Source of the DNA: Octopus vulgaris
Lineage: Eukaryota
NCBI GenBank assembly: GCA_951406725.2
Contig: OX597822.1
Coordinates: forward strand, 84,320,001-84,384,000
Length of the DNA: 64,000 nucleotides
Direction of reading: 5' to 3'
This document shows positions 4,336 to 41,771 of this stretch, piece by piece (position 1 is the stretch's first letter; every line of letters begins with the position of its first letter). The position numbers and the translations under genes are program-made. A model generated the notes under the pieces. That model was not told the DNA's origin. It was given only the letters and a program-made list of their open reading frames with translations, and did no database searches.

Positions 4336-4429
4336 TCCCTTCATACAGTCCCCCAGGCCCAACACCAACGCATCACCGGCCTCACTGTCTTTCCTGTTCC
4401 CCACAAGCAATGTTACAAGTACCTAGGCA

Positions 4430-5685: not shown

Positions 5686-5924
5686 TACATACACGCATAC
5701 ACACATAAAAACATAGATACACACATACAAAGATGCATTCATACATGCTTACATGCGCGCATACATACATACACACACATGCACACACACACATACATAC
5801 ATACACTCACATGCACACATACATACATGCATACATACATACATACATACATACAAACATACATACATACATACATACATACATACATACATACATACAT
5901 ACATACATACATACATACATACAT
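5686..5924. repeat. (CATA)n/(CA)n microsatellite
   Basis: Direct inspection. Confidence 0.95.
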
Positions 5925-6290: not shown

Positions 6291-6344
6291 CATTCAAGAG
6301 AGAGAAAGAAAAAAGAGAAAAAAAAAAAAACAATTGACTACCTT

Positions 6345-6665
6345 AAGTTAAAAAGTTGAGGGCGCTGAGAAACCTCTCTAATGGCTATTGAAGCACGCCA
6401 GCACGCTTGCAGCATTGCCGAGAGTGATGGCGAGGTTGATGCGCTGGAACAGCCAAGCGCCTCATGGGCCTTACCATTTACCTCTGCTAGGCGAGTTGCC
6501 AGTGAAGACAGGAATCTCGCAGTTAGTGACCCAACCCCACAAAATGTCTCCAAAGTCACAGGATGGAAAATGTAGTTGGCCGACAGATCGCGATATTTCA
6601 GGATTTTGTTCCGCTCAGCTGCAGAATCTGTGGATCTCACCCTGTCCGCTGCATCCAGGATGTGA
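6345..6665 (-). mobile_element. CRE-clade-like RLE retrotransposon C-terminal fragment
   Basis: AAERNKILKYRDLSANYIFHPVTLETF...FLSSLATRL, then frameshifted AWLFQRINLAITLGNAASVL. Confidence 0.65.
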
Positions 6666-7941
6666 GAAGAAAAATTACCTTGTTTTTTTTTTTTTTTTTC
6701 TTTTGTAGTGCAGCCCGTCTGATGATGATGATGATTCATGTCTTATGCAGCCTGCTTCTTGGCAAATTTCGACCCCCACCTGATCTAAATTATGTTCTCT
6801 ATATATGAAGCCCTGTGCAATGTTTGAAATTATATATGCGTGTTGCAGATAAACAATATCTTCAATATTCATATCTATAAAATTGTAATATATTTTATAT
6901 GGAAACTCATTTATACTAACCACAGGCAATATATGCAGTGAGTATATGTTAAATAAAATTTATATAATATAGTGTATGCGTATTTCTGTTAAGAGGACAC
7001 GTTATAATGATGTTCATACCTGTATGGACTACAAACTACGTTTAAACTTGACAAAATTATACTACTTTTGATAAATGAACTTTGATTATGGCCTAGTCTG
7101 ACAATAAATAATGTGTCTTAACCATTCTGTATGAAATGATATATTGAATGCATGTTTTGTCGATGCCTTTATCAAATACCAATTTCTACTGATTTCATTA
7201 AAAGTACTGTCGTTTTTTACAGCACAGGTATCCTAGTTCTTAATATAAACTTGGTAAATAAGTGTACAGAAGTACGTGATGATTTTCTTGCGGTCTAAAT
7301 TATTTATATTGAGAAGCTAAAATGTCTTTGTTTTCTAATGTCATAGTATTTTCATTCGCACTAAATTGTGCTGCGTTTGAAGAACTGTTTCGAAACCATG
7401 ATTTAAGTTCTACCAGTTGATTTGCATGGAGAAAACATGGTCCAGGGGAGGTAACTCTTACAAAACTCTTTTAACAACTTCAAGTCCGACGATCTGACAT
7501 CGTAACTTGGTTCTGTTCCTGTCTTAAAATAAAACTGGAGAGCATATTAAATAATGCAATCAAATGCCTGTAATAAATATGGAATAGAGATAGCTAGAAT
7601 GCTTTTCATCATAGGTCTACTCATTCAGGACTGACCTGCGACTAAAACATTTCTGTAAAGACAATAAAACGTATTAAACCTAAACATTCTCCTAGTCTCC
7701 TCTGCTGTGAAGAATGGAACCCCTGAAGTACGTCTATAAATTAACGAAGAAAAAGAAAAACAAGAAACTAAAAAGCAAATTAATGTAAAACGTAATTTGT
7801 ATTAAATGAATGATATATACTGCATGAGCGGGAGCGGAATATATTACCACGAGAGAATAAGTTCAGTTGACACCGGTATAAATTGCAACATGGTTTCTCG
7901 ATGTGGACAATTTTATTAAATGCGAAGTTTTTATTTCCAAA

Positions 7942-8007
7942 ATGCAATTTTCTTACGCCAATGAAGTGAAAATATACAATTTGAGTGCAGGGAAATCCCT
8001 TCCTGAG
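7942..8007 (+). CDS. NOL10: NOL10 exon 1
   Basis: ATG...[22 protein letters not shown]|gtaaat. Confidence 0.93.
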
Positions 8008-11000
8008 GTAAATCATTATATAAGTTTGTTTTTTTTTCTTTGAGTTTACTTGGATATCATTTATGTCAAGCTTTCGTCTCATTCACGTGGTGTTATTTCA
8101 AAATAACTTTATTTAACTTTCTTTCGTTCTTCGGTTTCGATCGATTTTTAGAAAGAGATTCGAATTTAAAGAAATACATTGAATTGAAATATGATTATAT
8201 TATTACAACTGTATTATATAATCAAATTGGGAAAACATAATTACTGGTTATTTATTCCTAAAATCTCCGGTTCTGTAACAAATGTACATGTTTTTACTCC
8301 AGGATTTCTCATTCAGAATGGATTGCTGATTATAAGGATGGATAATTAATGAAATAACAACAAAACAAAAACAAATCCGCCTGCTATTGAAACTAATTGG
8401 CAAACTGTAATCACTTGAAATTTCTATTAAGTACATTCATTATAGGTGATGAGATTAGAACCCAAATACCTTAACACACTGCTTTCCATCATCATGTCTC
8501 GCGTGTGTTTGTATGTGCTATGTATATTCTTTCAACCCTTCGGAGTTGATGAAGTAGCAGTCCAGCGCAGTGAAATGGCGGAATTGTTTGATGGGTTAAG
8601 TCTTGTGGAATCAACTCTGGCTCTTTGCTTTCTAAGTTCAAATTCTGCTTAGGTGCTAAATGGCAGGGCCAGTCACTACGAACATAGGTATATCCCATGT
8701 AACTGTAAATGGCTAGTGTGGAGAATGAGGAACTACAAGTAGCATGGATAAGCGATGAACAGCATTTTGAAGCTTTCATCCAACAGTAGATCAACAAACC
8801 TTGAACAGAAGGCTCATATTTTCTGTGATCACCAGTACTGACCTGGGACTAAATAGCAACAAACGTTGTTATTTACAAGGTTTCTTTTATTGACAAATGT
8901 GAAATGTAAGATACATTTTGAAAATATGTCAACATCTCATTATTAGCTAATGTTTTTGGTAACTTTTCAGTTCTCTTTTATTTTCATTTCCAGTGGCTCA
9001 CAGACAGAAAGAAACGAGAGTTACAGAAAAATGATCTTGGTATGAATTTTTATCTTCTCAGACATTTCCATCATGGTTGTTTATTTGGTGCCACCTGTTC
9101 CCAGAGTTGGCTCTTCATTCACTCAACACCTTAGATATCATAGGGGTTTACTTGATCAGAGCTAAGGAACAATATCAGTAGGGATCAGTGTAAAAGTTTC
9201 GATGTGATTGGTCAACCTGCTAAAAGTCATACACCATCTTTAAAAAAAATAAATAAATATGGGAGATACATTGGATGATGTAGTCCTTGATAGACTATGA
9301 CTTAGGAACAGACAGCAGAAATAGTTGTGAGATCACAATTGAAACACCTTTGGTAATCGATCTGTTTAATCAAGGTTCACCTTAGACTAAGCAGCATAAG
9401 TATGACTGGTGTTGTTACCATGACAACGGCATTTAACTCGAAAAAAGAGAATTTGCTATCAACAAAATTTACAGTTAAACAAGTTATGAGTGTTTATTGC
9501 CAATAACATTCTGGACCAGTAACTGTATACTTCAAAGAATTAATTTCAACAATCGAACCGTCCAACCCATGCTAGCATGGAAAGCGGACGTTAAATGATG
9601 ATGATGATGATGATTAAACAGATATGGCCAGTTTAAATCCTAAAGAGTTTTTAAAAAGAGGGTGGGGTATCAAAGCAATCCCTAAATCAACCCCCTTTTC
9701 ATACACAACTGTTGTCTATGATAGACAGTTCAACTACTACAACTCACTATCTGCTAGAAGTGGAAGATATCAAAAAGAATCCTTGACCCACCTTATATTC
9801 AGGCAGTATTTTGTGTCACCAAGGAAGCTCTGTCTGATCTCTGACTTGTTAGAAATAGTATTGAAGCCTCTCTCAAATCATGCCATTCTAGACAACAACA
9901 CATTAGAGAATATGGTCCTGTATACCTCTCAAAAAATAGACTGGATGGTCGTGACTGGGACTCTTTTGGTTATAGTCTGTTTGATCAGAACTGATCTGAA
10001 GCTATACAGCAACATGAAACATTTACCAAGTTAGAGACATCATCATCATCGTCGTCATCGTTTAACGTCTGCTTTCCATGCTGGCATGGGTTGGACAGTT
10101 TGATTGAGGACTGGCAAGCCAGGAGACTGCACCAGGCTCCAATCTGATCTGGCAAAGTTTGTACAGCTGGATGCCCTTTCTAACACCAACCACTACAAGA
10201 GTGTAGTGGGTGCTTTTTACATGCCTCAGGCGGCATTGGCATCGGTCATGCTCAGTGAATAACAAATACTTCTATAAAACTCTTTACAGAGTGAATGAAG
10301 ATGTTAATCACTTTCTTTTGATAATTCTTCTTTAGGCGCCATGTTCCGAAAGTGAGTCATAGGTGATCATATCCTGGCACTATTCCCTATTCTTTGTTTT
10401 CTGTCACAGCCTCTTTCTTCCAAGTCAAGCTTCTCCTTCCTCTGTTTCCCTTCCCTTCAGTATTTCCAATCATCACTAAATTCTCCAGGTCCTCTTTCCT
10501 CATCACATAACTAAGAAATCTCATTTGCTTGGCCGTTATCTCTCAAAGTAATTTTCTATTTGATAATTATATGCCTTAATTCTTTCTTTGTCTTATTAGA
10601 TATACGTCAACGAATTGAGTTAATCCAGGATTTTGAAATGCCATCTCTGAGCTCAACTATCAGTGTTACACCAGATGGCAACAATATTTATGTCACAGGT
10701 TAGTAAACAACAGTTTCTTTGCTTACAGACTTTAAGATGTGAGTATATGGCTGAGAGGACAAAGAAGGAGTTTGGGTGACCTGTGTTTCCATATATTCTC
10801 TGTCTTTTTAGCATCACTCACAAGGCTTGTGTTGACATGAAGCTGTAGTAAAGATACTTGCCCAACATACCAGCCAGCTGCAGGATTGATCCAAAGACCT
10901 TATGGTTGCAAGGCGAACTTCTTAAATGCCACTTGCCTGGCATGGGATTAAGATGCTTTGATCTTTCCCTTGATTTTGAGCAGCTTGTGTCATGTCATCT

Positions 11001-14000
11001 GTGAGGATCAACATTTTCAAATCCAAAAGATAATGTTTATATCCAAACTGACATGGATGCCTTGTTAGAACACCAAATATTGCATTCTTAACCTTGAGAG
11101 ATCATCTCGTTTAGGTGCTTGGTGTATAAAAAGCATGTCTGAAAAGATGCTGGTATTCTATATATCATGGCAGTGAGATTTGCCTGGCATTAGGTGATCA
11201 GTACTCTCGACTGAAGAAGTCCGGTAGACTGAAATCACATGATATGGGAATTCCGATGCCCATGACAGAGGGATTTCGTCTGCTGTGATCTATGTTCCAA
11301 GTACCTGTATGAGAGGATCTCTCAAGACTAATAACACAGGATTCGTGTTCTAACAAGGTCTCCATGTTAAGTTGGCTAGAAAGATTACCTTTTTGTATTA
11401 ACACTGCTTCCATCATTAATAATTAATTTTCAGCACATTAAAAGCACCCAACACACACTGTAAAGTGTTAGGAAAGGCATCCAGCTGTAGAAACCAAGCC
11501 AGATCAGACTGGAACCTGGTGCAGCTCTCCAGCTCTGGTCAAGCTGTCCAACCCATGCCAGCATGGGAAACAGACGTTAAAGGATGATGTTGATGATGAT
11601 GATGATGAATGTATACTACAAAAATAAAAACATGACTTGACACTTTTAATCTCTAGGTTCATTTTCAATTCATTTGAAGTCAGTCAATTCTTCACTTTTT
11701 ACATTTTGGTCAATTCATCCTTCAGGTGCAGGCATCGTTGTGTGAGAAGTAGTTTGCTTCCAACCACATGGTTCCGAGTTCAGTCTTACTGCATGGCACC
11801 TTGGGCAAATGTTTTCTACTATAGCCTCAGGTTCCTTATGAGTGGATTTGGTAGATGGAAACTGAAAAAAGCCCATCATATATATGTTTATGGGTGTGTG
11901 TGTGTGTGTGCCCTTGTGTCTGTGTTGGTCCCACAACTGCCATTTGGCAACTAGCCTTGATGTGTTTACATCCCCATAAGTTAGTGGTTTGGTAAAAGAG
12001 GCTGATAGAACATGGCCACAGTCTAATCACTGAAACAAGTGAAAGATGAAAGATATCTCAACCCACACATGTGGTTTAACCATGTATTTATGATTTGGTG
12101 AAATGTTAGAAGAATGCCAAGATATATTTTACATTATGTTGTCTCATTCCCCTAAACTTCAAATTCGAATTTTGCCAGTTTCAACTTTCAGCTTTAATCT
12201 CTTTTAAATTGATTTTTTTTTTAAAGAACAATACCAGTAATATACTGGAGCCATTTTATGGGTAAATAAAAATACTCTTTCTGTGGAAACAAGTAAATTA
12301 ATGAGATCATACGAGGGTGAGGCAAAAAGTAATACCATTTTGTTTGGGACAAGTATAATTACCAACACAGGAACATTTATCATACATTAAAATGAAGCTG
12401 GTCCTCTGTGGATCACATCCCTACTTCGCAACATAGTCACCGTTTCTCTCAAAAGCAGTGTTTCACCTTCGAGTGAGAGCATGTATCCCTGCCCCATAAA
12501 ATTCTGTTGACTGTTCTTTGAGCCACTTCTTCACTACCTCCACACTCACCAGATTTAGTGCCTTCAGACTATCATCTCTTCGGCCCCATGAAAGAGGGTT
12601 TGAGAGGCAAACATTTTTCCAGTGACGAGGAAGTGAAAACTGTAGTGAAGAATTGGCTCAAAGAACAGTCAACAGAATTTTATGGTGCAGGGATACATGC
12701 TCTCATTCGAAGGTGGAACATTGCTATTGAGAGAAATGGTGACTATGTTGAGAAGTAGGGATGTGATTAACAGAGGACCAGCTTCATTTTGATGTATGAA
12801 ACATGTTCCTGAATTGGTAATTATATCTGTCCTAAACAAAATGCTTTTACTTTTTGACTCACCCTTGCATTTTAGCTACTAGATTACTGTCGTTTGAAAT
12901 CTCTGTAACCCAGCCATACAAATTTAGAAGGAAAATTAGTAAGAATTCAGATCTGATGTCTATTTAAACAATACACCTAATTCTAAGCACTTAACTGTCA
13001 GTAATAAACTATTTTGGAATTTATTTGTGGCTGATTAATGGATACATGGAACTTGGTTAAGCCCCCACCATTCTAGTTATTGAAAATATTTACATGTGTC
13101 TTTTTATTTCATTAACCTTGTTTGTGTTGCAGGTTCTTATAAGCCCCGTGTCCATTGCTATGACCTTACAAATCTCTCATTGAAATTTGAACGAGGCTTA
13201 GACAGAGAAGTCATAAAAACAAAAGTACTTTCTGAAGATTTTTCTAAGGTAATGGCTTAGATTTTTTTTTTTTTAATATATATTTCTAATGTGTTTCGGT
13301 TAACTTTGGATATTATTAGGAATTTGAAGGATTTAATAAAATAACTTCACCATTATTATGCTACTGTGTGGAACATAACAAAACACTTTCCCATAAAACT
13401 TGGATGGAATGTTTTGATTTAAATGGAAATGCTTTGAAGCAAGAGTATTTCTATCCTAGAACCAACAGTGCTCTGAAAAGACTTTTAAACATTTTTCAGG
13501 ACTTTATTGAAATTTTCTTGAATTGAAATTCATGTAGACTAGCAGAGGAGAGTGGGAGAGGTTGAGAAAAAGCTGATTGTATTGGATTATATAGTCTTAG
13601 GTAAATTGCATCTGGAGCAAAAACAAAGACAGGATGGTCACAGTTGGAATTATCAGAACTGAAAAATTATGTTGGTGACACAAAATGAAGTTCCCTTTCA
13701 TTTATTCTTGTAGTTGACTGGATCAATTATCGAACACTATTTATTTAAAGACTTTTGTAAGGTCCTCCTTATTTTAGTTCCAAAATAGAAAGTCATACAG
13801 GAATCTTTTCCAGTTTCCTATTAAATAGGATTGAAAATGTTGATCAAAAGTAATTCCAAACACTGTACAGATTTTCTTCTTCCACGAATCCCATTACTGT
13901 ACCTTGTACTTGTAGGTGATATCGGTTATCAAAGAAGTAGTGGCTGTTTTCAAGTACCAGTCATAACCCTTCAAGCATAAATTCTTTTCTGGACATCCCG

Positions 14001-15472
14001 ATAATTAAAGAAAATAAGGCAGTTATAACCAATCTCTACTACAAGGACAAAGACACTCTCCAATATTTAGATTTTAGGTCTTACCACCCATCCCACTCTA
14101 GAAGGAACATCCCATTCAATATAGCAAGATGTATGTGTTCAATAGTTACAGACTCAACTAAATGAGAATTGACTGGTAGAATCAGATATCTTCCTTCAGA
14201 GGCAAAAATGCTCCAAAAACTTAATAAATTGTCCACTAATCAAAGCAAAAGAAATCTCAATTTCTGCCTTATGGAGAAACCCTCACAAATGAAGGTGAAA
14301 ACAAAAACATAAATGAATATTCCATTTGTAGTCACCTATCATCCTATAAACAACATCTTAAATTCAGTGAAACAGAGCCTTCCAATTCTACATAAATCAT
14401 TGAATCTCCAAAGAATTGAAGAATCACAAATCATCAACAACCCCACTGCCCCGACTGGCTCCTGTACCAGTAGCACATAAAAAGCACCATCCAAACGGGG
14501 CCGATGCCAGTGGCACATAAAAAGCACCATCCGAATGTGGCCAATGCCAGTGGCATGTAAAAAGCCTCATCCAAGCATGGCCGATACCAGTAGCACACAA
14601 AAGGCACCATCCAAACATGGTCAATGCCAGTGTCACCTGACTGGTTCCCATGCCGGTGGCACATAAAAAGCACCCACTACACTCAGAGTGGTTGCCATTG
14701 GGAAGGGCATCCAGCTATAGAAACATTGCCAGATCAGATTGGAGCCTGGTGCTGCCTTCTGGCTTACCAGTCCCCAGTCAAACTGTCCAGCCCATGCCAG
14801 CATGGAAAACGGACGTTAAACAATGATGATGATGATGATAAAAACTGCCACCAAATCTCAAAAGGCCTCTAACAAAGACAGTGTTCACATTAGAGATAGA
14901 AATAATGCTGGTAACAAATTATGGAAACACTTATGGGATGTGTGAAATAACTGAGCCAGAAACAACCAAAAGATTCAAGAATGAGAAGGAATTAAAGGTA
15001 AATGCAAGCATGAATTGCAAAGCAAAAAATCTCATCTACTGCATCACATGCCTACAATGAGTGAAAATTACATTGGAGAAACAGGATCCAAATGAACCAG
15101 CCACGTGAGAGTGCACAAACAGCAAATTAATGATTCCTCTCTATTTTGTGAACATCTAGACATTTGTGCAAATGAAAAAATTTTTTAATTTCCTTTTTAC
15201 AAAATATTTTGTAAGAATTCTAAATCTGAAACTGAATCACAAATAGTCAGCAACTTCCTTTATACGGATGATGATGAACTATGAAAGCGCTTACACACAA
15301 TACAAAAATTTCGTTCCAAAAGGTTCATGTCATTTTGTTTTTCAAAATAACTTTTTATATATATATATATATATATATAATAATAATATTAGGGAGTATA
15401 GCTCCAAACTTACAGGGAAAAATTAGATTTAGTATTAACTCAGTTGCCTAATAGTAGTTTTATCTCTAATTC

Positions 15473-15513
<41 letters not shown>

Positions 15514-18500
15514 ATGTGTGTGTATGTTGAGAAACATATCTATTTATCTATATAGATAGACTAAATATCTTGTTACATTCTCTCCTCTCTTCCAGTTGGT
15601 GTTCCTTGAAGTCAACCGATATGTGGAGTTCCATAACCAAGCTGGCACCTACTACTGTACACGTGTTCCAAAATATGGTTTTGATATGACTTACCACACT
15701 TCTCTCTGTGATTTGTTTATTGTTGGGGCCAGGTTAGTATATTAAGGAACAATTTTCCAACATTTTAGCATCAGATAATGGCATTTAGGAAAAAAAATCT
15801 TCCATCTTCTTAGGGAAAATAACAACAAATTCACAATGGAAATTATGCTTTTACTACATAAGATTGTAGAATGTGATATGGCTACTGTATTTAGCTCCCC
15901 TTCCCCCAACACACTTGATTGCCTCACTGCACACCATCAGAAAAAACATTCTTCTTAAGTGAAGAACAGCAATTGGGCCTCCAAGATGCGGTCCAAATGC
16001 TCACGACAGAGTGAACGCCACTTATTGTAGCCAAAGAGCTCTAAATCTATAAATAGTATCTAATCTTTTGGCAGAACACTTGTGTGGCATAAGTCATTTC
16101 CAGAAGCTGAAATTAAAACAAATACAAATCAAAATTCAGTTAACAAAAATTAAAATATTTCAATGAATTTTTTTATCAACTGTGCAATTTCTATTTTTAC
16201 ATCTCACAACGAGAGATATTCAGCAACAGTACTTTAGAGTAAAGATTTTTGCCAACATAACATGGCAGTCCTGGTTTAGGACTAATGTTGCTGTAATTTA
16301 ACCCCAGGAGACATCGTCCCCAGCTGGAGACGATGTCTCTTGGGGCTAAATTACAGCAACATTCGTCCTAAACCAGGCTGCCGTGTTATGTTGGCAAACA
16401 ATCTGTGCAGTTTCTGTTTAGTAATAAATTTTTTATTTTAGTTCACCATTTGTTTTTATTCATGTTTTCCCTTCCTACATTTTTTGTTGTCGAAATATCT
16501 AAATTTTTAAATTTCTTTCTCGCTTCTCCAGTTCCCAGGTTTATCGTTTAAATCTTGAGTTGGGCAGATTTATGTTACCATTCCAGACAAATTCAACGTA
16601 AGTTTTAAAAACTCTTTTACCAAACATTACCTATGTTGACCCAGCCCAACTCTATCAAGTACACCAATTCTGCCTTGCACCCCTCCCATCTGATCCACAC
16701 CCTCTTCATTATCCTACGTCTCTTTCCGTTTTAAAACAGTAGAGTGTAAGTTAAGAGAAATAGGAAGAGTTGCCTCCCTTACAATACAAAATCACTTAAT
16801 GGTTGTAAATCATATTTTATATATTTTTTGCGATCGCGAAATCTTAGGTTTAATCCCACCGTGGGGCAAATGTTTGTTGCCATATCCTTGTGAGGGAAAT
16901 TGATTTGGTAGAAACTGAAGAAGCCCAGCCTGTACGTGTATGTGTGGCTTTATCTTGACATCATGTGATACTTGGAAATAAGCATCATCATCACACAAGC
17001 AATGCTGTTCCTTGCCAGTCTTCTGTGAAAAGATGTCTGACCTTGGGGAAATATTGCCTTGCTTGAAAACAAGGGTTGGTGGCAGGAAAAGCATCCAGCC
17101 ATATAAAATCTGCTTCAATAAATTTTATCTGACCCATGCAAGCCTGGAATAGTGGACATTAAATGATGGTGATTGATATTTTAGTGGCCAGTTTGACAAT
17201 AGCAGAGGTTGGTCAACTGAGTGGATGCGGTATTGGAGCAACTTTTCTGGACAGAACATTCTATTTACCATTTCCTTGGGACACCTAGCTACCAGGTTTC
17301 TGCTTTAGATCAGTATAAAGAGTGTTAACCTGTAATAAACTAGCATCCTGTCCAAAACATTGTCCTCTCATCAACTTTGAAACCAGAATTAAGCCCTGTC
17401 CCTTAACTTCTCTTCAGAGATTGGGAGGTAGTGGTGCTTGTTTGTCTGTTTTTGTTGCTTTTCTTGTCTTTTATATTTCACAATATGATGCAGCACGGAA
17501 TTTTGTTAGTGAACAGGTCGCAGTCTCAAAGCGACAAAAATATTTTGGCAAATTAAATTTAAATGTCGAAGTGAATCTAACGGTTTTTGTGTGTTTTTAA
17601 ATGGCTTATAAACACCTTACACACTGCAATTGTTTTCGTTCCAGCACACGAACTCAGATCAGGTCACTTGCTATGCAAGTACATTTCCGTAATATGATTT
17701 CTAACATTGTGTAACAATTTAATATGCCTCAATACAAACGCAACTTTTATTTTTCTCTTCACAGAACATCAAATTGCTGTGATATGAACATGTATCATGA
17801 ACTCTTCACTTGTGGAACAAGAGAAGTAAGTGTGTTCCGTTTTTTATCTTGCATTTATTTAATCAGTTGTTTTGCATAACAATTAAAAGGACGGATATAG
17901 ACAGGTTATGACCTTTGTAGACCCAACCCCTGACACATCTTCACCACCATTTCCTCTCTCTCTCTCTCTCTCTCCTCTACAGCAAGACGCTTGATTCTCT
18001 CCCTCTATCATACTTCACCTTCTTGTCACTGGCACAAAGCCACACTGAGATGAAATTTATGCAGTCAATAATCAGCTTGAGCATCTTTAGAACAATATCT
18101 GGGCTGAATGGAATAGAATTGCAAAGGTTTGCAATTCTTTTGTGCAAGACTCATTTAGTTTTCCATTCTTCATATCAAAAACAGTCTGCATAAAGTTTGT
18201 GTAACAATGACGCTTTTATAAAACAGTGACAACTGGACATTGATGGTAGAGGATCTCGTGGTTGGTTGGTTGGGGATTGGTTCAATATGCAGTATGAATC
18301 TTTAAAACTAATAATAATAATGAGCTTAGTGTATACACTGCTCAGGTGCATAACAACTCATCAGAAAAAAAAACCAAAGGTGGGTGAACAGTAAATTCAA
18401 TAATGCACAGGTAGTGAACAGTGATCGAGTCACTAAAAAAGTTGAGTTCACCAAGTGTACAGTTGGCAAATTTTGGGAAGCATGGAAGTTTTGAAGGATA

Positions 18501-19525
18501 TAGTGTCCTGACAGCTAACGACTGATGCTGGCAGTTTATTCCATGCTTCAGCAATTCTGAGCATGAAAAAATGTTTCTGAAAGTCATGGATGTTGTGTTG
18601 TTTTTTGTTTTTTTTTGTAAGCATGTTCACGGGTGTTAAACATGTGGGGCCCAAGATTTCAAGTAAAGCAGAATGAGTTTTCAAGAAATTCCCTGTTTTA
18701 TTATAGTTTAAATTTGTCATTATGTTGGTTTCCAGATCAAATAAACCTATGATGACAAGTATCTTGTAGCTTTGAAATTTTGATGATGTGATTGTATATT
18801 TTTAGGATGGCATTGTCAGGTAGGTATGAGAGGCCAGATCTTGCCAGGTAGAATATTTGGACAGGATATGGTCAGTTTAAATACTAAAGGCTTAAGGCAG
18901 TGAGGTGTGATTTGAGGGATATTTCATTGCTATTTCTATGAATTAGTATCTCCCTTGGTGGTTCATGTTACGGACAGCCCTGCACTTATTATTAAAAAGA
19001 AAAAAATGATAATTAAATAACAACAGACATCTGACAGTCATCCACTGATGGACATTCACACAAATGGCTGAATTTTCAGACCAATCCAACCCATTCTTAC
19101 AAGGAAATTTTTTTTTTAATTTACCATTAAACAAAAATAAATAGGAAAAACAAAGGAAAACAGGGTGTCAAATTTTATTCCATTATTTTCTTATTTCAGG
19201 GTACCATTGAATGCTGGGATCCACGATCCAAGAATCGGGTTGGCTTGCTAAGCCCTAACTTTAAGGAACACATAAAGTAAGCAGGCTTCTTCTGATTTTG
19301 TTTATCGTTTATTTTTTATTTGATTCGGTCATTCAACTGCAGCCATGCTGGAGCACCACCTTGAAGGATTTTTTTTATCGAATGAATTGAACCCAGGACA
19401 TATTTTACTTTTGTTATTTTTAAGCTTGGTAATTATTCTGTTGATCTCTTTTGCTGAACCACTAGGTCATGGAGATGTCAACAAACCAATACTGATCATC
19501 AAGCAGTGGTGGGAGACAAACAAAG

Positions 19526-19557
<32 letters not shown>

Positions 19558-22500
19558 CATCATCATCATTTAATGTCTGCTTTCCATGCTGGTATGGGTT
19601 AGATGGCTTGACTGGAACTGGTAAGCTGGAGGGCTGCACTAGGTTCCAGTCTAATTTGGCAAGGTTTCTACAGCTGGATGCCCTTCCTAACACCAACCAT
19701 TCCAAAAGTGCAGTGGATGCTTTTTACATGACACCAGCATCAACCACAACTACAATTTCACTTGACGAGTCTTCTCAAGCATGACATAACACTGAAACAC
19801 ATATACGACGGGCTTCTTTCAGTTTCCATCTATCAAATCCACTCACCAAGCTTCGGTTGGCCTAAGGCTATAGTAGAAGACATTTACCCAAAGTACTATG
19901 CAGTGGGACTGAACTTGAAACCATGTGGTTGGGAAGCAAACTTCTTACCACACAGCCACATCTGCTCTTTGGTTTTTTGTGAGAAAACACCGTTCAGTAT
20001 AGAGGCTAGTATATTTATTGTTGTTGTTGTTGTCGAGCCCATGGTCAGCTCTCATTGAGTGCATCTGGGATCACCTATGATTAATAAATGTAAATAAATA
20101 CCATTGGTTGTGTGGTTAAGAAGCTCACTTTGCAACTACTTCGTTTTTGGGTTCAATCCCTCAGCATGGCAGCTTGGCAAAGTGTCTTTTGTTATAGCTC
20201 CAGACTGGCCAGTGCCTTGCAAGTGAATTTGGTACACTGAAATTGAGTGGAGATCGTTGTGTGTGTGTGTGTGTTTTTGCCTGTGTCTGTATTAGTCTGC
20301 ACATACCAGTGTTGGTTTGTTTATACCCTTGTAACTTGGTGGTTTGACAAAAGAGACTAATAGAATAAGTTATCAGACTTTAAAAAAAGTGAGTATTGGG
20401 GACGATTTGTTTGATTAAACTCTTGGAGTTGGTGCTCCAGCATGGCCACAGTCCGATGACTGAAACAAGTGACAGATAAAAAATTTTTGGCAAAAGGCAT
20501 CATCCATCATTGCCAGCCTCCTCTGGCCCCTGTGCCGGTGGCACGTAAAAAGCCCCATTTAAGTGTGGTTGTTGCCAGTGCCGCCTGACTGGCTCCCATG
20601 CCGGTGGCACATAAAAAGCACCAACTACACTCTCAGAGTGGTTATCATTAGGAAGGGCATCCAGCCATAGAAACCTTGCCAGATTGGTTTGGAGCCTAGT
20701 GCAGCCTCCCGGCTTCCCAGACCCCAGTCAAACCATCAAACCCATGCCAGAATGGAAAACAGACGTTAAACAATGATGATGATGAATTGTTAAATGAATA
20801 CAAGAAGGCATTAAGGAGGGTAGGTGAGATTAGATCTCAGGATGTTGGGCCTTACAGATGAAGATTAGGGAAAGGATGCCGTGCTAAGATCCAATCAACA
20901 CATGATGGCATGGAAATGGGAGAAAAAAGGGTTTTAAATCAGTGATGATTGTTATACTGTTGTTTAGCCCCGAGTCACTCCTGATTGAGCAGGCTTTTGA
21001 TCAAATGCATTCAGGCCATGACCATCTCATCTTATTTATCCAGGACTGCAGTTTTCATGGTGTCCTTTAATTTTTTAAGATGGAAAAGTGTAATTTGAGG
21101 AGCTTTAGCTATTATTTCTAACAAATTGTTTGACTAAGTAGAAGCTCTCTCGTTAAGTTGGTGATGATGATGGTGATAACAGTGTTGATTTATGTCATAT
21201 CATTTATGTAATATAATGAGTTGGTTATCCTTGCAATTAGAAGAGAAAAACTTCCTATTGTTAATCTACATTGTTTTAACTCTCTTTTCAGAGTCGACAG
21301 CAAACCTGCCGTAACAGCCCTTAAATATCAAGATGCTCTGAAATTTGGCGTTGGAACCAGTTCTGGTCATGTTAGTCTTCTTTGTTTACCTCAAGTGCTA
21401 TTGTTAATATGTAACCCAATAGAACCTGTCACATGGTTGGGCTGTCGGCAATGAAACTGGCAACCCCACCAAGTCTGCTTGGTAAGGAGAGTGATTTCTG
21501 TTACACACCCTGAAGGACTAAAGAACAAAACCTATCAAAAGGCAGATGACCTCATTAGGTCAACAGCCATTTTATGGCTGGGAGTAAGAAACCTGTAGTC
21601 TTTGTTTAGACATCTCTCTCTAAGAAAAGGGAAGTTCTGATGTAACTTGTGACTTCATTTGCCTCCAGTGATGTAGACAGGTTCTTTTGAGACAAATGCA
21701 TACTTCTATATTTAAGAGATGAGGAATTATGTACATTATTTACATTTGATGGATATTTGTCCTCATCTTGTTTGTTGTTAACACAACGTTTCGGCTGATA
21801 TACCCTCCAGCCTTCATCAGGTGTCTTGGGGAAATTTCGAACCTGGGTTCTCATTTCTAAGCTATTTTTCGATGTTGCTGTTGTTGTTCATGATTGTAGT
21901 TGTAGGTTATTATTTTGTATATAAACTGACACTCCATCGGTCACGATCTGATCGACAGAACACCCTGCTCATGAAATTAATGTACGAGGGTGAGTCAAAA
22001 AGTAATGCCATTTTGTTTAGGACAGATAATTACCAACCCAGGAACATGAATCATATATCAAAATGGAGCTTATTATGAGTTTATTGTTTTTCCTTTTGGC
22101 AAGAAATCGACCAGAAATGACACCTTAAGTATCCCAAAAGACAGTTGCCATGATTTTTCCAGCCGACCTTTGCATCTTGAACTTTTTCAGTGGTGGTGAC
22201 GTAGAGTGATGCCATTCCATTGACTGCCTCTTTGATTCCGGTTCATAATGATGAACCCATGTTTCATCACTTGTTACGGGCCTTCAAAAGAAGGTGTTCT
22301 TTCTTTGACTTTGTAATGAAGAATTGGCTCAAAGAACAGTCAACAGAATTTTACGGGGCAGGGATACATGCTCTCATTTGAAGGTGGAACATTGCTATTG
22401 AGAGAAACGGTGACTATGTTGAGAAGTAAGGATGTGATCCACAGAGGACCAGCTTCATTTTGATGTATGATACATGCTCCTGTGTTGGTAATTATACCTG

Positions 22501-22794
22501 TCCTAAACAAAATGACATTACTTTTTGACTCTCCCCCCACCCCCATACAAATGGCTGAGTGCTCCACAAATATACTCTTAATATCTTTCTCAAGCAGTTT
22601 TGGCATGACACAGAATGTAATAAGGCTGGCCCTTTGAATAAGAACTACAACTTATTTTTGCCAACTGAGAAAACTGGAACAACATGAAATAAAGTGTCTT
22701 GCTCAAGGACATAATATGCTGCCGGGGATTGAACTCATGGCCTTACAGTCATGAGCCAAATACCCTAACCATTAAGCCTCATGCCTTTATATAT

Positions 22795-22827
<33 letters not shown>

Positions 22828-23004
22828 CTTTATTATTAAAGCCTCAAAAATATCACAAAAACTGCTACTCAGAGTTTCACGTTTCCATTCATTGGGATAT
22901 TTAGTGATGTTTACACAGCTTTAATAATAAAGCATATTACTCTACCTCCAGTATTTGAGTACTATTTTTTGCCACCCTGTTCCACATTTATGTGCTTATT
23001 CTGC

Positions 23005-23035
<31 letters not shown>

Positions 23036-26000
23036 TCCACAATATCCTCCGCTGTAATAATTTTTTGTTTCGACCTAACACTTTGGTCCTCTCTTTACAG
23101 GTACAATTTAATGTTAATGGCTCATATCACACTTCAATAATTTCAGGTGTTATTATATGATCTTTACAGGTACAATTTAATGTTAATGGCTCATATCATG
23201 CTTCAATCATTTCAGGTGTTATTATATGATCTTTACAGGTACAATTTAATGTTAATGGCTCATATCACGCTTCAATAATTTCAGGTGTTATTATATGATC
23301 TTTACAAGTACAATTTAATGTTAATGACTCATATCACACTTCAATAATTTCAGGTGTTGTTATATGATCTTCGTTCCAACCAACCACTCTTAGTGAAAGA
23401 CCACCATTATGGTCTCCCTATCAAATCAATCTATTTCCACAACCAAGAAGATCTTGTACTTTCACTGGATGCCAAAACTCTTCGCTTCTGGAATCAACAC
23501 ACAGTAAGTTCACAGTTTGTAAATGCTGTACAGTATTTGTTGTTATTAACTCCTACCATAAGGTGGGGCACCTGGCAGAATCGTTATCACACCAGGCAAA
23601 ATGCTTAGCTGTATTTCGTCCATCTTTAAATTGAGTTCAAATTCTGTTGTGGTTGACTTTGCCTTTCATGCTTACGGGGTCATTAAGATAAGTACCAGTT
23701 GGACACTGGGGCTGATGAAATCAACTTACACCCTCCCCCGAAATTGCAGGCTTTGTGCCAAAATGTGAAATCATTAACTCCTGCTTATTTTATCATAATG
23801 ACACACACCAAGGTGTGGGAGATATTGACCCATATATGATATCGAATTCTACTATAAAACAAAAACAAATTAATTTTATTAATTAAGTGGAAAAAATCAT
23901 TTTTGAGCATGTGTCAATATTTTATGCCTTTTTATTTATTTTCTGTGTTTGTTTCTTGTTTTCAGGGTAAAGCATACACAGCTATTGAGCCAGGTGTACC
24001 CCTTACAGATTTAGCTGTCTACCCTAACTCTGGTATGGTGTTCCTAACAAATGAAGCTCCTAAAATCCGCGTCTATTTCCTACCAGTAAGCAATCACTTT
24101 CACTAAGTTCCCTCTATTTGCCTTTATGTTTTTATATATTTGTGAATGCAAGCATGGCTGTGTGGTTAAGGAGTTTACTTGCCAACTACAGGGTTTCAAG
24201 TTCAGTCCCATTGTGTGGCAGTTTGAGCAAGTGTCTTCTACTCTGACTAGATTTGGTAGACAGCAGCTGAGAGAAACCTTTCATATAATTATTATCATCA
24301 TCATCATCGTTTAACGTCTGCCTTCCATTCTGGCATGGGTTCGACGATTTGACTGAGGTCTGGAGAGCCAGCAGCTGCACCAGGCTCCAATCTGATCTGG
24401 CAATTTTTCAACAGCTGGATACCCTTCCTAATACCAACCACTCTAAGAGTGTAGTGGGTGCTTTTTGCATGCCACCAGCACAGGGGCCACTGACATCAAC
24501 CATGCTCGAATGGTACTTTTTACGTGCCACAAGCACTGGCATCAGCCTCGCTCAAATGGTACTTTTTATGTGCCACACACATACACACACACACACACAT
24601 ACATATCATTGTATCAACCATACAATCTGGTGTTGTTATACACTGCTGGCCACAATGCCCTTCCCTGCATTATTGTAGTTTCCAAATGCTGCACCCCTGG
24701 TGACTCAGTTGTCAGGGCATTATCCCCACCCCTGATCAGAAGGCTAGTCCATTTTGGAAGGGTGACCCTCTTACAACTGAGTGGACTGGATCAATGTGAA
24801 ATGAAGGGTTTTGCTCAAGAACACAATCTGCCAATGGTCTGGGAATTGAAACCATGATCTTGCTATCATGAGTGCAACACGTGTGTGTTAATGTATCTCC
24901 TTGTCGGTCATTTCCAGTATTCTACAAAAACGTGTGGCCATTGGAAAATATTACCCTTCTTGGAAACAAGCATGGTTTGGTGGCAGGAAGGGCATTATAT
25001 ATAAAACCTGCCTCAATAAACTTTATCCAACTCCTGCAAATATGGAAATGATGATGTTTATATGTTGTCCAATATGAAAGACTCGCAATTTACTGTTATT
25101 GTTTACGGTTTCTTTGCAGTCGATTGGAACCGCTCCAAAATGGTGTTCCTTTTTGGATAGTTTGACTGAAGAACTCGAAGAAAGCAAAATAGAAACAGGT
25201 AGGTTTGGCTTTAATTTTATTTTGTCTTTAGACTTTTACGTTGTTTAAAACCTCTTCAAATTCTGAAGGGTTTTTTTTCCCCTGACAATATTATACCAAT
25301 GTGTGCTTACATTGCATATCACTTTGTGTAGGCACAGTCATAGCCGTGTGGTTAGGAAGCTAGCTTTCCAGTCATATGGCCTTGGGTTCAGTCCTACTGC
25401 AAGGCCCCTTGAGCATGTGTCTTCTATAACCTTGGGCCAGCCTAAGCTTTATGAGTGGATTTGTTTGATGGCAATTGAAAGAAACCTGTTGTATGTGTGT
25501 GTGTGTGTGCACGTGTGTATTTGCCTCCAGCACCTCTATTGTCACCCAAACAGGTTGAATGTCCAGTCAACCGTGTCACATTGGGTTACAGGAAATTTCA
25601 TCGCAATCAATTTTGCCGTGGAAAAATTTGTTGTAAAAAAAAAAAACTTAGCTGTTTTCTTGAAATGGTAACTTTCTCAAGTAACCTACCAATTAGAGAA
25701 AGATAGTTCCCAAAAACTCGTTCATCTAGTTTGGTGTTCTTGTGTGCTTCCATAACAGCAAATTTTTCTACAGCAAAAGCATTTGCGGTGAATTTTCCTG
25801 ACACGCTTACATCATAGATTTCCAAACTGCTGTACCAATTCTTCTCTCCACACATTGCTACACGAATCAAAGCCTTTTCTCTAATCTCACATATTTGGTA
25901 AATATTTCAGTATATGACGACTACAAGTTTGTTACACGAAATGAACTAGAAGAGATTGGTCTATCACACTTGATTGGTTCCAAGATGTTACGTGCCTACA

Positions 26001-26784
26001 TGCATGGTTACTTTATGGACACCCGTCTCTATCATAAGGTAGGTGGAATTGCTACCATATTTTTTCTTCCTTTTTTTTTGTTTTTTTTTTTTTCAAGAAG
26101 AGGAAGAAAGAGCTTTTTCTCATATTTTACTTAAAATTAAGATTTTGCTGTTTATATCAGAACTTAGAAACCTCAAAGAGACTTAAAATAAATCTTGTGT
26201 TTTTTTGGAGAGGGCAGGGTTCAAGGGTGGAACTCAAATTAGATAAAGCTATAATAATAACATGTAAATATTGGGTTAAAATATGCCTATGAATAGAAAA
26301 ATGTCAAAAGCTGCTTGTGGGACTTGAACCCACTTCTGTAAATATGACAAGACATTGGACCAAAGCAATCCTTTAGATTTCTCCATCCATTTTAGAAGCT
26401 TTGCTCGTACCTGTCAGAGTTGTTTGTTGTTTACGTCATAAGGATTTAGAAACTTTGAGAAACATAAATTAGATCAATTTTTTTATCAGTGGGACTCAAA
26501 GTAGATCAAGAATGCAAAGGATTTGTAAAAGATGGCAAGAAAATGAGAAAGGCATGTGATTCTGCTTGGACTGAAGTGACATTGTTTATGTTCTACACAA
26601 ACAAAAAACCTGGAAGTTGGTGGTTCAGTATATGAAGACATGGAATAAAATACAATTCTTGCAAACAAGTCAGGAAGGGTACCTGGTTGAAGATTATTTC
26701 TTCAAGACATCTTGTCCAGCTCGTGTCAGGGTTGGTTCATGTTGGCAATGAGAAAGCAGTCATGAAAATGATAATGGTGATTAT

Positions 26785-26818
<34 letters not shown>

Positions 26819-27148
26819 TCATCATCGTTTAACATCCATTTTCCATGCTAGCATGGGTTGGACAATTCGACACCGGATAAATGGATGACCTAGTACTTGA
26901 GTTTCAGGCTTTCCAAAATATGTTTGTTATTGTAACTTTGGTTAACCTTCATCAGCTAGATTCACTGAAGACGAAATGCCCACACACATCTTTGCCAGCT
27001 TTACATAGTGTTGTACAGTTTTCGACTACTATATCCAGCAAACATTGGTGCCTTGTTGTGCCATGGTTTCCTATTCTAATATATATATATCTTATAGGCA
27101 TGCAGTCCATGGAAGCAAGGAAAGCAATACTTCCCTTAAAAATTATGG

Positions 27149-27187
<39 letters not shown>

Positions 27188-29712
27188 TTATTTATATAAG
27201 TGTGTGTGAGTGACAGGAACTGGAGAGCTACACGAGGCTCCATTTATCTGTTTTGGCAAGATTTCTGCATGGATGCCCTTCCTAATGCCAACCACTTTAC
27301 AAAGTGAAATAATGCATGATTAATTCAAAACAATGTAAATGAATTACTTTGAATTAATTATCTCTTTACACATTTGAGAGAGTAATCTGAATGCTAATAT
27401 CCTTTAGGAAAGGCCTGAACTTGCTTTTTAGTAAAGTTAAACATCCTTAGCCTCCATGACTACAAGTCAGTCAAATGGAGATGAGGATACCATAACCATG
27501 AACTTATTAAGTTTGGTGAGGTTAAGGGGACTGATCTTCAGTTTAGGTTTTTGTAAGGCATCATCAGCATGAAGTTTGTAGGTGAAGAGAGTCTATACAT
27601 TGTAGGGACTACAAGAGATGGGGAGAGAGGGAGGCAGGGCTGTTTCAGTTAAATGATGTATACAGTTATTATCAAACATTGCAGAACAAACAGGATCTGT
27701 AGAAATTCCACATTATATAAATGTTCTTATTTCCATTTTAATGCATAAATTTATCAATCTTCTTGACACTCATTATTTTAAATATTTCTTTTATGTCTTC
27801 AATTTTCTTCCATAGTGAAGGTTACATAAAGCGTAACCCTTAAATACATGCATTGAAAGCGGGTAAGAACAAACAGAGGAAGTATTATGTTATTATCATA
27901 ATATAAATAGTATTTATGGAAAGGAGTGTCGTTGAGGGTTTGTTTTTATAATTTCTTAATAACAATTATTATTATTATTTTATTTTATTTTTGCAAGGCA
28001 AAAGCAATCATTGAACCGTTTGCATACGATAAATACAAGAAAGAAAAAATTCGAGAAACGATTGAGAAAAGTCGAACCACTCATGTCAAGCTTGAGGTTT
28101 GTATTTTAATAATTTGATGAAATGAATTTAGAGTGAATGGTCAAATGTGCAAGAGTTGATGAAAGGTCACATTTGGATGTCTTTTTAGCCTTTCAGCATT
28201 TAAACTGGCCGAATCCAGCCCAAGTATTCTGCCTGATTTGTGTTCAAATTAGCCAAGTCTGGCCTTTCACACTTACCTTACAATGTCATTCTAAAAATAA
28301 GCACTTGCATCGTCAATTTGAACTTCGAAAGAAATATAAGTAAAAAGTCCCTGATATTTTTTTTGCTTTAGCAAGTTCTGTCAACTACCATTAGAAAAGG
28401 ATATATTGTGTGTTTGTGTGTGTGTGTGTATGATTCTATTTTTAAATTCACTTTGGTTTGCCTGCCTTTAAATTCCTTTGACATATTTACTCTGGAAATA
28501 AATCTTTCAATAATATTGAACTATATAGGCGCAGGAGTGGCTGTGTGGTAAGTAGCTTGCTTACCAACTGCATGGTACCCACTGCATGGTACCTTGGGCA
28601 AGTATCTTCTGCTATAGCCTCAGGCTGACCAAAGCCTTGTGAGTGGGATTTGGTGGATGGAAGCTGAAAGAAGCCCATCGAATATATATATCATCATCAT
28701 CGTTTAATGTCCGCTTTCCATGCTAGCATGGGTTGGACAATTTGACTGAGGACTGGCAAACCAGATGGCTGTACCAGGCTCCACATATATATATGTATGT
28801 GTCTGTGTTTGTCCCTCCAACATTGCTTAACAACCATTGCTGGTGTGTTTATGTCCCCGTAACTTGGCAGTTTGGCAAAAGAGACTGATAAAATAAGTAC
28901 TAAATTTACAAAGAATAAGTCCTAGGATTGATTTACTCAACTAAAGGTGATGCTCCAGCATGGCCACAGTCAAATGACTGAAGCACAATAAAAGAATATA
29001 TGTATTTTGAAGAGTCCTATCTGTGCTCTTAAATGAAAGTGAGATGTGGGTTACTGTGAAGAGGATAGGACATCGATTGGCTATGATGCAAAGGGCCATG
29101 GAAAGATTGATGTTAGGAACATCATTAAGAGAGCACATTGGAAATGAGATTATTCAAGAGCAGAGTGAAAGATGTGATTGCAGAGTCCCAAAAGCACGAG
29201 TTCCGTTGGGCCAGACATGTCATAAGGTTCACAGACAACAAGTGGACCCATACAGTTGCCAAATTATATCCAAGAGATCTAAAATGTTCACTCAGAAGAC
29301 CTCCACGATGATGGGAAGATGATCTAGTTTAGCAATCTGGGTCAAGATAGGAAAGAATGGTGCAATCAAGACAGAATTGGAAGCACATTGTGACCAGTGG
29401 TGTATAACAGTATCTGACGATCAGGTCAATACTGTGTACTGTGACATGTCGAAACATGTCCATGACTTTATCAATGATAACATTCATTCAATTACTTTCT
29501 CTTTTCCTACATACATTGCATGCACTAAATATATGTGTTTATATCATTTTTCCCTAATATGGTTAATGTTCTTGGTGCAGAAACTGCCTCCTATCAACAA
29601 GGACCTGGCTGTCAAGCTGATGGAAGATTTAGAAGAAGATGAAAAACAAGGCGCTGATGCCAAGGTTAGTAACTACAAGCTTCTATATATTCTCAACAGA
29701 TATATGTGTGTA

Positions 29713-29748
<36 letters not shown>

Positions 29749-31317
29749 CGCACACACATAATATATTACTACTATGGCACTCCGTCGGTTATGTCGATGA
29801 GGGTTCCAGTTGATCCAATCAACAGAACAGCCTTCTCATGAAATTAACGTGCAAGTGGCTGAGCACTCCACAGTCTCATGTGTACCCTTAACGTAGTTCT
29901 CGGGGAGATTCAGTGTGACAAGGCTGGCCCCTTTTGAAATACAGGTACAACAGAAACAGGAAGAAAGAGTGAGAGAAAGTTGTGGTGAAAGAGTACAGCA
30001 GGGTTCGCCACCACCCCCTGCTGAAGCCTCATGGAGCTTTAGGTGTTTTCACTCAATAAACACTCGTGATGCTCGGTCTGGGAATCGAAACTGCGAGTTC
30101 ACTGCCATAACCACTGGGCCATTGCCCCTCCACAAATAATATATATACACACATGCTTGTTCATGTGGATTCAGTTGTCAGCCATTTTTCTACATACAAA
30201 CATTTCATGTTTGTGTTTGGTTTGGTTTGGTTGTATGTTTAATGTATTTATTCTTTTTATTTTTGTTCGTTTGAAGTGTACGACTTCAACTAATGAGTTT
30301 AAAATCAAATGTTGCAGTTCTGTGGAAGAAACTTGTGTCAGCAGGATCTTTGTTAGTTTAATCAACCAACACTTTCCTAAGATGCTACATTTTGTCGGGT
30401 CTCTTTTTAAGTATAGCATAAAGAAAATATTAACAAGTGTGGCCAACCCTGAAACAGAAGCAGGTTACTCGTGCAGATGTGACATGACTACTTAGTGGCC
30501 ATTGCAATGCAAAAACTGCATGAGGCAGAGGTAGCATCTAAGGAAATTGGGGTTGAGCCAAATTCAAGAAACTACTCCCGTTCTTTGTTTGGGTATCTGC
30601 ATAAATGGAGGGGACAGCTGAGCACGTGCTTGCATCAAGTCATATAATTTGTAATGATGAAGTCAAGCCAAATAATGATATTACCTAGACCAGTGGTTCC
30701 CAGAGTGGGTGGCACTGCCCCTCTAGTAGGCGTGCAAAGAATCAGGGGTTGCACTGAAGAAAAGTGGGGGCGATAATGGGGTGGCCAAAAGGGGATGATG
30801 GATGTAAAAACAACAAAATAATTGGTTAATTAGGTTAAGTTTTATTTGTGAAATACAGTCTTTTCAAATCTGATGCAGAAAGTAGTCTATGTTTGTGGTG
30901 GAGAGGGAGCTAGGAATGTGTCCTGGATGCCAGACTGAAACGGTGTGGGAACCACTGACCTAGACCATCAATATTCTACCCTTTTTTTTTATGTTATAAG
31001 TCTTTTGGTCGATGAAGATAAGATTGGACGATTGTCATGCTGATGATGTCTAATGTGGCAGAAACATGTCCACAACTGTCCTCTTATCTCCAGTCAACAA
31101 GCTTATTCTGTTTCTTAATGGTATGTCACTTTTGGAGAATTTTTGAGATTATCTCCCTTCCTCAAGTGGAGCTGGTCCTAATTGCAATTTAGTAATAGTG
31201 ATGCATTCTCTAGAGGTGGAGATAAATTTTGTAGATGAAGAATTTGTTGTATGATATTTGCTATACCTGTATTTTTCTATGCTATCATATCATCATCATC
31301 ATATATACATGTGTGTG

Positions 31318-41746: not shown

Positions 41747-41771
41747 GCTAGTATGTGTGTGTGTGTATATT

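Follow-up and report, generated by a model that had tools for sequence, protein, structure and literature searches.

What are four hammerhead ribozyme motifs doing in the introns of a single octopus gene, and where did they come from? The question is raised by a 64,000-nt stretch of the Octopus vulgaris contig OX597822.1 (the window, whose own numbering gives all positions below). The host gene is NOL10 on the plus strand: an exon is 98% identical to O. bimaculoides NOL10, and the protein of that species maps to the window as 19 coding-exon matches at 7942-38587(+). The initial annotation had placed in the introns of this gene, two in each orientation, four folds of the order CUGANGA, helix II, GAAA, helix III and NUH, derived from different repeat families, and these points hold. 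A descriptor scan of both strands recovers H1 at 11205-11250(+), H2 at 21780-21825(-), H3 within 26880-26977(-) and H4 at 31017-31088(+), with cores, taken from C3 to H17, at 11211-11244(+), 21820-21785(-), 26955-26894(-) and 31040-31070(+). All four have the conserved core (CUGANGA, GAAA and UH) and three helices, open at helix I. With introns numbered from coding exons, introns 3 and 15 hold the copies sense to NOL10, H1 and H4, and introns 9 and 13 the antisense copies, H2 and H3, respectively. They belong to four separate repeat families, with 314 family candidates for H1, 1474 for H2, 386 for H3 and 759 for H4. We consider it very probable that each motif is the worn remnant of its own insertion, that the four hammerhead repeats involved are unrelated, that all were likely copied by Penelope enzymes, and that they likely have little effect on NOL10. 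As such they are ordinary for an octopus genome; what matters more is the richness of that genome in hammerheads and a tRNA-like segment in the H2 family. The wider reading to which they lead, to which we give an even chance, is that an autonomous octopus Penelope element holds a captured tRNA-Arg-derived RNA polymerase III (Pol III) promoter in its terminal repeat and breeds its own short interspersed element (SINE), which would account for about three quarters of those copies whose length suffices to reveal it. The genome around it would hold on the order of 100,000 core-intact hammerheads from a wide range of families. Some of these families would be circular non-coding units, and their insertions of more than one unit would be the trace of Penelope enzymes reverse-transcribing circular RNA.

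Could the motifs be chance matches in AT-rich repeat DNA? An Rfam scan of the window gives no hammerhead at E<=1, and H1 and H4 match a loose type I descriptor only, because their helix I is broken or bulged close to the core. Yet the loose descriptor finds exactly four matches in the window against a mean of 0.27 (maximum 2) in 300 local dinucleotide shuffles, and a strict one finds two, H2 and H3, against 0.003. A background sample was drawn from 24 contigs as forty stretches of 10 kb at round coordinates; in it the loose descriptor gives 24 matches (1.3 after shuffling) and the strict one 15 (0.13). The family consensuses have fuller helices than the window copies and a palindromic helix III, with compensatory pairs among genomic copies. 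These contrasts refute a chance origin, which is left with hardly any probability, and bear out the claim that such motifs exceed their frequency in shuffled sequence. Judged by their letters, H1 to H4 are genuine hammerhead ribozyme sequences.

The same background sample removes the idea that they form a cluster. The loose background amounts to 3.84 matches per 64 kb, with 7 of the 24 matches coming from one array, and the four in the window are what it predicts (binomial p=0.55), as expected for ordinary insertions. Sitting less easily with that reading, the probability of at least four matches is 0.05-0.12 in the 30.6-kb NOL10 gene and 0.01-0.03 in the 19.9-kb span, which was defined post hoc; any local excess around NOL10 is mild at most.

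Does NOL10 pre-mRNA then carry working ribozymes, tolerated in both orientations as had been claimed? H2 and H3 are not ribozymes in this transcript because they are antisense. The sense copies H1 and H4 are 17-22% diverged, although all of their core residues are kept. H1 has an AUA triplet with a predicted cut after 11244; the second pair of its helix I is a G-G mismatch, and a CpG-type change interrupts the palindrome of helix III. H4 has a GUC triplet and a bulged, extended helix I, and its helix III is 2 nt shorter, a 6-nt palindrome. The predicted energy of the dimer helix III is -3.8 kcal/mol in the window copy of H1 against -12.9 for the intact palindrome, and -1.6 against -10.7 in H3. 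For H4 it is -4.6 against -10.3 kcal/mol for the inferred ancestral palindrome, with 2 nt lost, a 2-nt loop left and a partner needed. No partner of the same family as H1 or H4 lies within the window, and the predicted minimum-energy folds of both window copies are not the catalytic fold. Because each sense copy is single and its helix III weakened, cleavage is predicted to be slow. H1 and H4 thus probably cut NOL10 pre-mRNA slowly or not at all, the four insertions are likely of little effect, and the picture of ribozymes tolerated in either orientation is not established. Three RNA runs, chosen by species label, contain no reads over H4 and are uninformative on its cleavage.

Could the host instead have kept H1 and H4, cutting its own pre-mRNA to tune splicing or RNA level? 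A host role has been proposed for conserved intronic hammerheads of amniotes, and several features fit one here: complete cores despite the divergence, the GUC triplet and long helix I of H4, the mild local excess in NOL10, and more intact cores in the H1 and H4 families (16 of 23 and 9 of 24) than the 2.5 and 1.8 expected from the decay of their flanks. But the motifs were picked in the initial annotation for their intact cores, and the background predicts 1.3-1.8 of them per 30.6 kb anyway; the mismatch of H1 lies beside the cut, and the weakened dimer helices, the non-catalytic folds and the lack of a partner in the window all speak against a function. We regard host retention as very unlikely. 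Nor are intronic hammerhead copies new, since 42-44% of Xenopus retrozyme copies are intronic, although depleted there after normalising (bioRxiv 10.64898/2026.07.22.740005).

If the host does not maintain them, what spread these sequences? H1, H3 and H4 come from families without open reading frames (ORFs) that are circularly permuted. The H1 copy at 11136-11430(+) is about 0.9 unit of a 341-nt family and 83% identical to its consensus; an inverted 5' piece of the same insertion, a Penelope-type inversion, lies at 11023-11131(-). The H3 piece at 26880-26977(-), which includes the hammerhead with its GUA triplet and long helix II, belongs to a circular family of about 430 nt, and its inverted companion at 26997-27093(+) carries the preferred 3' end of the family. 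The H4 copy at 30958-31281(+) is about 0.8 unit of a 410-nt family, 82% identical to consensus. The closed units measure 341, 428 and 410 nt (GC 41, 37 and 36%) for H1, H3 and H4, with direct-repeat periods of 325-342, 420-439 and 374-410 and a longest stop-free stretch of 56-76 codons. Each unit has one type I hammerhead, which fits the low-GC, ORF-less retrozyme unit of 150-450 nt. The initial annotation had given as background the minimal type I hammerheads of Penelope-like elements and non-autonomous retrozymes, with a very short or palindromic stem III; the term minimal suits H2 alone, H1, H3 and H4 having an extended helix I and a palindromic helix III of 6-10 nt.

The ends of these copies are informative. 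Their 5' ends are scattered around the circle, and their 3' ends gather at preferred points, measured from the core: 12 of 38 H1 copies end at +225-239, 18 of 40 H3 copies at +255-269 and another nine at +315-329, and H4 copies at +240-254 (6 of 31) or +300-314 (7 of 31). Preferred 3' ends often abut (AT)n or (AC)n. Pieces exceeding one unit occur in all three families (13 of 38 for H1, 7 of 40 for H3, 7 of 31 for H4), with lengths of up to about 1.5 units. Copies that run through the cut site and are longer than one unit would, we infer, require either a circle or an uncut multimer as template; circular templates and more-than-unit copying have been proposed for Penelope-like elements (PLEs; PMC4209133). 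A mechanism can be sketched in which the parent RNAs would self-cleave when paired into dimers by the palindromic helix III and would then be ligated into circles, or be left as uncut multimers. Reverse transcription would begin from one fixed point, at a target that is nicked and often rich in (AT)n, and go on for more than one round. H1, H3 and H4 are dispersed retrozyme-like elements, likely copied by a Penelope-type reverse transcriptase (RT) and endonuclease.

Conservation of the ribozyme core points the same way. When the count is limited to non-CpG positions at which window copy and consensus agree, change in the three families is 2-6 times rarer in the core than in the flanks: 3/160 against 85/757 in H1 (1.9% vs 11.2%), 3/151 against 76/1007 in H3 (2.0% vs 7.5%) and 18/190 against 152/956 in H4 (9.5% vs 15.9%). 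In H2 core and flanks do not differ significantly (9/225 vs 145/2213, or 4.0% vs 6.6%). Compensatory pairs are found in H1 (G-C in 10 copies, U-A in 8) and in H3. The observed covariation score is reached in 2 of 500 shuffles for H3 and in 26 of 500 for H1 (3 of 500 for cells paired), counts that relatedness among copies can inflate. Most simply, many templates would have diversified while under selection to cleave, decay setting in once they had inserted.

Several observations weigh against this account of the three families. Two complete tandem hammerheads are found at none of 106 loci (75 + 31, some overlapping), which show only partial tandems, and no source array is seen for that reason. 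No autonomous partner is identified for H1, H3 or H4, whose link to Penelope is one of insertion anatomy. The first core box taken alone is significantly conserved only in H1 (P=0.003; 0.051 for H3 and 0.056 for H4), and the copies were chosen for resembling window copies whose cores are intact, which may add bias. Covariation in H4 lies within the shuffles, 33-98 of 500 scoring as high, so any covariance support among genomic copies comes from H1 and H3 and not from H4. Exact copies remaining are few (9 for H1, 7 for H3, 15 for H4).

The longest copies of these families (L035, L039, L077 and L092) start within a second hammerhead, between +7 and +28 from the core, and a complete second one is never present. 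The cause may be that copying halts at the folded ribozyme, or that copies with two ribozymes are selected against. A GIY-YIG-type ORF beside an H3 copy, considered as the H3 parent, shares no repeat with that copy. It is a fragment (L061:638-1225(-)) of one of two other Penelope-like families, with a CX4CxxC linker like that of Neptune and a Pfam GIY-YIG match at E=0.0026; downstream of the other fragment, L066:2547-3092(-), a hammerhead follows after about 600 nt in the same orientation.

The H2 family has a clearer parent. The window copy at 21704-21888(-) is a 5'-truncated Penelope 3' end that begins at an (AAT)n tract, 97% identical to the family consensus and about 1% off it around the core. 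Its minimal type I hammerhead has a GUU triplet with a predicted cut after 21785, a 5-bp helix I, a 6-bp helix II preceded by an unpaired base and beginning with a G-C pair, and a helix III that is a palindromic CG. Two 35-nt variants of the core have 1630 and 525 exact copies in the genome, and 6 of the 40 random stretches contain pieces of the family. Upstream of the core come first the (AAT)n tract, then a tRNA-like segment and then a reading frame whose last part is what we take, from motifs read by eye, to be a GIY-YIG-like domain. A longer copy (L246) has 569 open codons with Penelope-type RT motifs, also read by eye, and the family protein matches Pfam RVT_1 at E=2.7e-6, just under the curated cut-off. 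It has 1793 homologs at E<=1e-50, with PF00078 and/or PF26215 among the top matches listed and PF01541 in 3 of the 120 listed. One result counts against the domain assignment: Pfam makes no GIY-YIG call on the protein itself.

Insertion anatomy agrees with the coding content. An inverted 5' piece is present in 76 of 120 copies selected by core sequence alone. The 3' ends of the 120 form two classes, at +115-120 or at +85-99, the difference being an optional tail of 25-35 nt. Together with 5' truncation and a hammerhead in the terminal repeat this is the anatomy of PLE insertions; partial tandem and inverted insertions, an optional 30-40-bp tail and microsatellite targets are given as signatures of endonuclease-positive (EN+) PLEs (PMC8557442). 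A coding Penelope element, with an RT and a GIY-YIG-like domain, has H2 as its 3' terminal repeat, and the family appears to be an EN+ element of Penelope/Poseidon type, its clade being assigned by motif only. In four 5'-truncated copies (L007, L014, L030 and L205) the (AAT)n tract adjoins the (AAT)n tail of another element that resembles long interspersed elements (LINEs), which suggests microhomology-guided 5' joining.

What is the tRNA-like segment doing between the stop codon and the ribozyme? In coding copies this head starts 29 nt past the ORF stop. It has A- and B-box-like segments, and its best local alignments are to the tRNA-Arg genes of the genome (z=9.3 and 7.1), in a comparison set of distinct tRNAs from 30 loci and few isotypes. 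Rfam finds no tRNA in one family copy with a worn A box, and ARAGORN at a lowered threshold returns only noise. Sixty-four core-selected copies extend as far as -128 from the core, and 47 of them stop no further than -170, within 42 nt, where the neighbouring stretch would predict 20% (p=4e-20). Seventeen of the 120 extend beyond -170, and just three of these stop within the next 130 nt. Several copies start at the very base that aligns with tRNA position 1. The pattern suggests, at even probability, that a head-to-3'-end RNA of about 270 nt would be made by Pol III and copied in trans by the enzymes of the parent element. Most H2-family copies would then come from a short RNA that starts at the internal tRNA-Arg-like A/B-box segment, and this RNA would escape cutting since a lone minimal hammerhead is nearly inactive; a minimal PLE hammerhead does not cleave as a monomer and cleaves at a low level as a dimer (Cervera and de la Pena 2014, PMC4209133).

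Could the pile-up of 5' ends instead be a stop of the reverse transcriptase, or a fold-back, at a hairpin before the head, all copies coming from full-length Penelope RNA? A 4-bp hairpin of -5.4 kcal/mol lies at about -144 to -133 from the core, and many copies have a short fold-back inversion there, giving apparent ends at -150 to -154. The (AAT)n tract has a pile-up of its own, which indicates that sequence features alone create truncation hot spots. A U/A variant at core position 7, tried as a marker of short versus coding copies, does not separate them (12 of 90 against 5 of 30 long copies, p=0.76), and short and long copies are alike in this respect. The concentration of ends within 42 nt, the near absence of stops in the next 130 and the starts at tRNA position 1 are harder to obtain from a hairpin, as are A/B-box-like segments in just this place and the absence of a T4 terminator from the short-unit consensus and from seven of eight complete copies. 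We give the hairpin somewhat less than an even chance.

Is the head also a free SINE with other tails? In a separate sample of 30 loci selected by the head, which has 597 exact copies, no second recurring tail is found at any locus, and that candidate is not supported. A hammerhead lies within 300 nt downstream at 19 loci and nearby at 24; four loci continue upstream by pattern and one more by eye. The short form is thus not separate from its autonomous partner, the head being continuous with the coding element. In the three RNA runs, 6,110-9,117 of 11.5-12.9 million reads map to an H2-family copy, equally in both directions, and 69-73% of them run on into unrelated sequence; there is no pile-up of starts or ends, nor a circle junction among the joints shown. 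This is the pattern given when host transcripts carry the copies as passengers and the library is unstranded, and it is neutral on a short Pol III RNA and on cleavage.

How many hammerheads does the genome hold? Extrapolated to 2.8 Gb, the background gives about 113,000-159,000 loose motifs (intervals 62,000-241,000) or 57,000-104,000 strict ones, a density of 20-57 per Mb. In 1.43 Mb of fetched DNA, enriched by the selection for H2, 175 strong matches form 19 sequence clusters whose stems are wholly different from one another; helix III is perfectly palindromic in nine. The suggestion of a diverse, Penelope-linked hammerhead population is upheld by this variety and by the direct continuation of H2 into a Penelope ORF. 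One array of another family, L136:3082-4550 (G000:C1, ~20,003,000), has five head-to-tail copies at a period of 353-359 nt with identical intact hammerheads, and two further copies of its unit lie nearby on the opposite strand. It looks like a young, classical retrozyme array of the non-LTR kind (LTR, long terminal repeat), and is the best candidate seen for an active element.

The degenerate sites named in the initial annotation fared unequally. Two are dead family copies. The site at 46836 lies in a second copy of the H2 family outside NOL10 (46682-46929(+)), with a tRNA-like head from about 46687, the (AAT)n tract and a hammerhead killed by a change of C3; an inverted 3'-end piece at 46625-46684(-) is fused to its 5' end. 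The site at 22861(-) lies in a dead, 5'-truncated copy of a fifth hammerhead family (22821-22896(-)) that has lost the 5' strand of helix I. Other copies of this family (L103, L240, L253 and L162) have a 6-bp helix I, a C(C/U)GA(U/C)GA box and a 3-bp helix II. Many of its copies read CCGA for CUGA in the first core box, a U4C variant, and its 3' end is at (AT)n. For the sites at 15269 and 56876(-), 1.46 Mb of sampled DNA yields no further copy, and they are unsupported. The site at 4059 belongs to a repeat family with a CUGA box in none of the seven copies shown. This abundant repeat (4036-4140(+) in the window) has seven other copies in the 1.46 Mb, six of them in random stretches; it is hammerhead-shaped with a palindromic helix III, and its copies read CCAAUGA or near it, never CUGA. 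It may represent a dead or variant core that nonetheless spread.

Other features of the window are of separate interest. A near-perfect inverted repeat with arms of about 65 bp in NOL10 intron 5 (16255-16391), which has a weak, sub-threshold Rfam microRNA match, is probably a hairpin like those of miniature inverted-repeat transposable elements. Downstream of NOL10, exon-like ORFs at 41825-42292 and 50472-50801(+) carry a methyltransferase-like motif and belong to a second gene, presumably ATPSCKMT/FAM173-like. A fragment of a CR1/L2-type LINE reverse transcriptase, recognized by eye, lies at 40875-41770(-), with worn copies at 1132-1410 and 18342-18801.

How do these elements compare with known systems, as far as the available portions of the cited articles describe them? 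Like the minimal hammerheads in the pseudo-LTRs (pLTRs) of metazoan PLEs (PMC4209133), H2 has a short helix I, an enlarged helix II, an unpaired 5' base between positions 9 and 10.1, a G10.1-C11.1 pair and a palindromic 15.2-16.2; it likewise lies downstream of an RT-endonuclease ORF and occurs mostly as single, dispersed, truncated copies. Unlike those pLTRs, the H2 terminal repeat contains a tRNA-like segment and an (AAT)n tract as well. The order of RT and GIY-YIG-like domain, the partial tandem and inverted insertions, the optional tail and the microsatellite targets are shared with the EN+ PLEs Penelope/Poseidon and Neptune (Craig et al. 2021, PMC8557442). The octopus density implies far more motifs than the 2,000-9,000 per genome of PMC4209133, which counts about 9,000 in Xenopus tropicalis, although descriptors differ; counts of 126,247 in axolotl and more than 6,000 in a coral (PMC7229834) also come from descriptors other than ours.

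H1, H3 and H4 resemble animal non-LTR retrozymes (Cervera and de la Pena 2020, PMC7229834; Li, Clavereau, Pollet 2026, bioRxiv 10.64898/2026.07.22.740005) in being ORF-less, 340-440 nt long and below 45% GC, with one type I hammerhead. Those retrozymes have been proposed to be non-autonomous PLE derivatives (same sources). In contrast to the tandem criterion for retrozymes (bioRxiv 10.64898/2026.07.22.740005), the octopus units are dispersed, reach at most about 1.5 units, carry inversions and show two ribozymes at none of the 106 loci. They would be direct genomic traces of the circle-templated, more-than-unit Penelope insertion that has been proposed, and make that model testable.

A 2026 curated annotation of octopus repeats lists 30 recently active Penelope families and, in its available portions, makes no mention of ribozymes (PMC13282606). 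The literature searched yields no report of octopus hammerheads, nor, including the available text of PMC8557442, of a tRNA-derived segment in a PLE pLTR; Repbase, which may include these families, and paper supplements lie outside that search. The H1 to H4 motifs belong to known kinds, and as far as these searches show the tRNA-bearing Penelope terminal repeat is new. Were the segment a working Pol III promoter, it would mean a SINE arising within an autonomous Penelope, a pairing not found in the literature searched. The nearest parallels come from elsewhere. The schistosome SINE-like hammerhead repeats (PMC6765202) also join a Pol III-type promoter to a hammerhead in a short retroposon, as the short form of H2 does; they are tandem, have canonical hammerheads and lack an ORF, whereas in H2 the promoter-like segment lies in a coding Penelope with a minimal hammerhead. 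Helenus and Cassandra (Kojima 2024, PMC10886601) share with H2 a tRNA-derived A/B-box segment in the terminal repeat, but they are non-autonomous elements of the LTR class, while H2 is the pseudo-LTR of a Penelope element and is still attached to its ORF.

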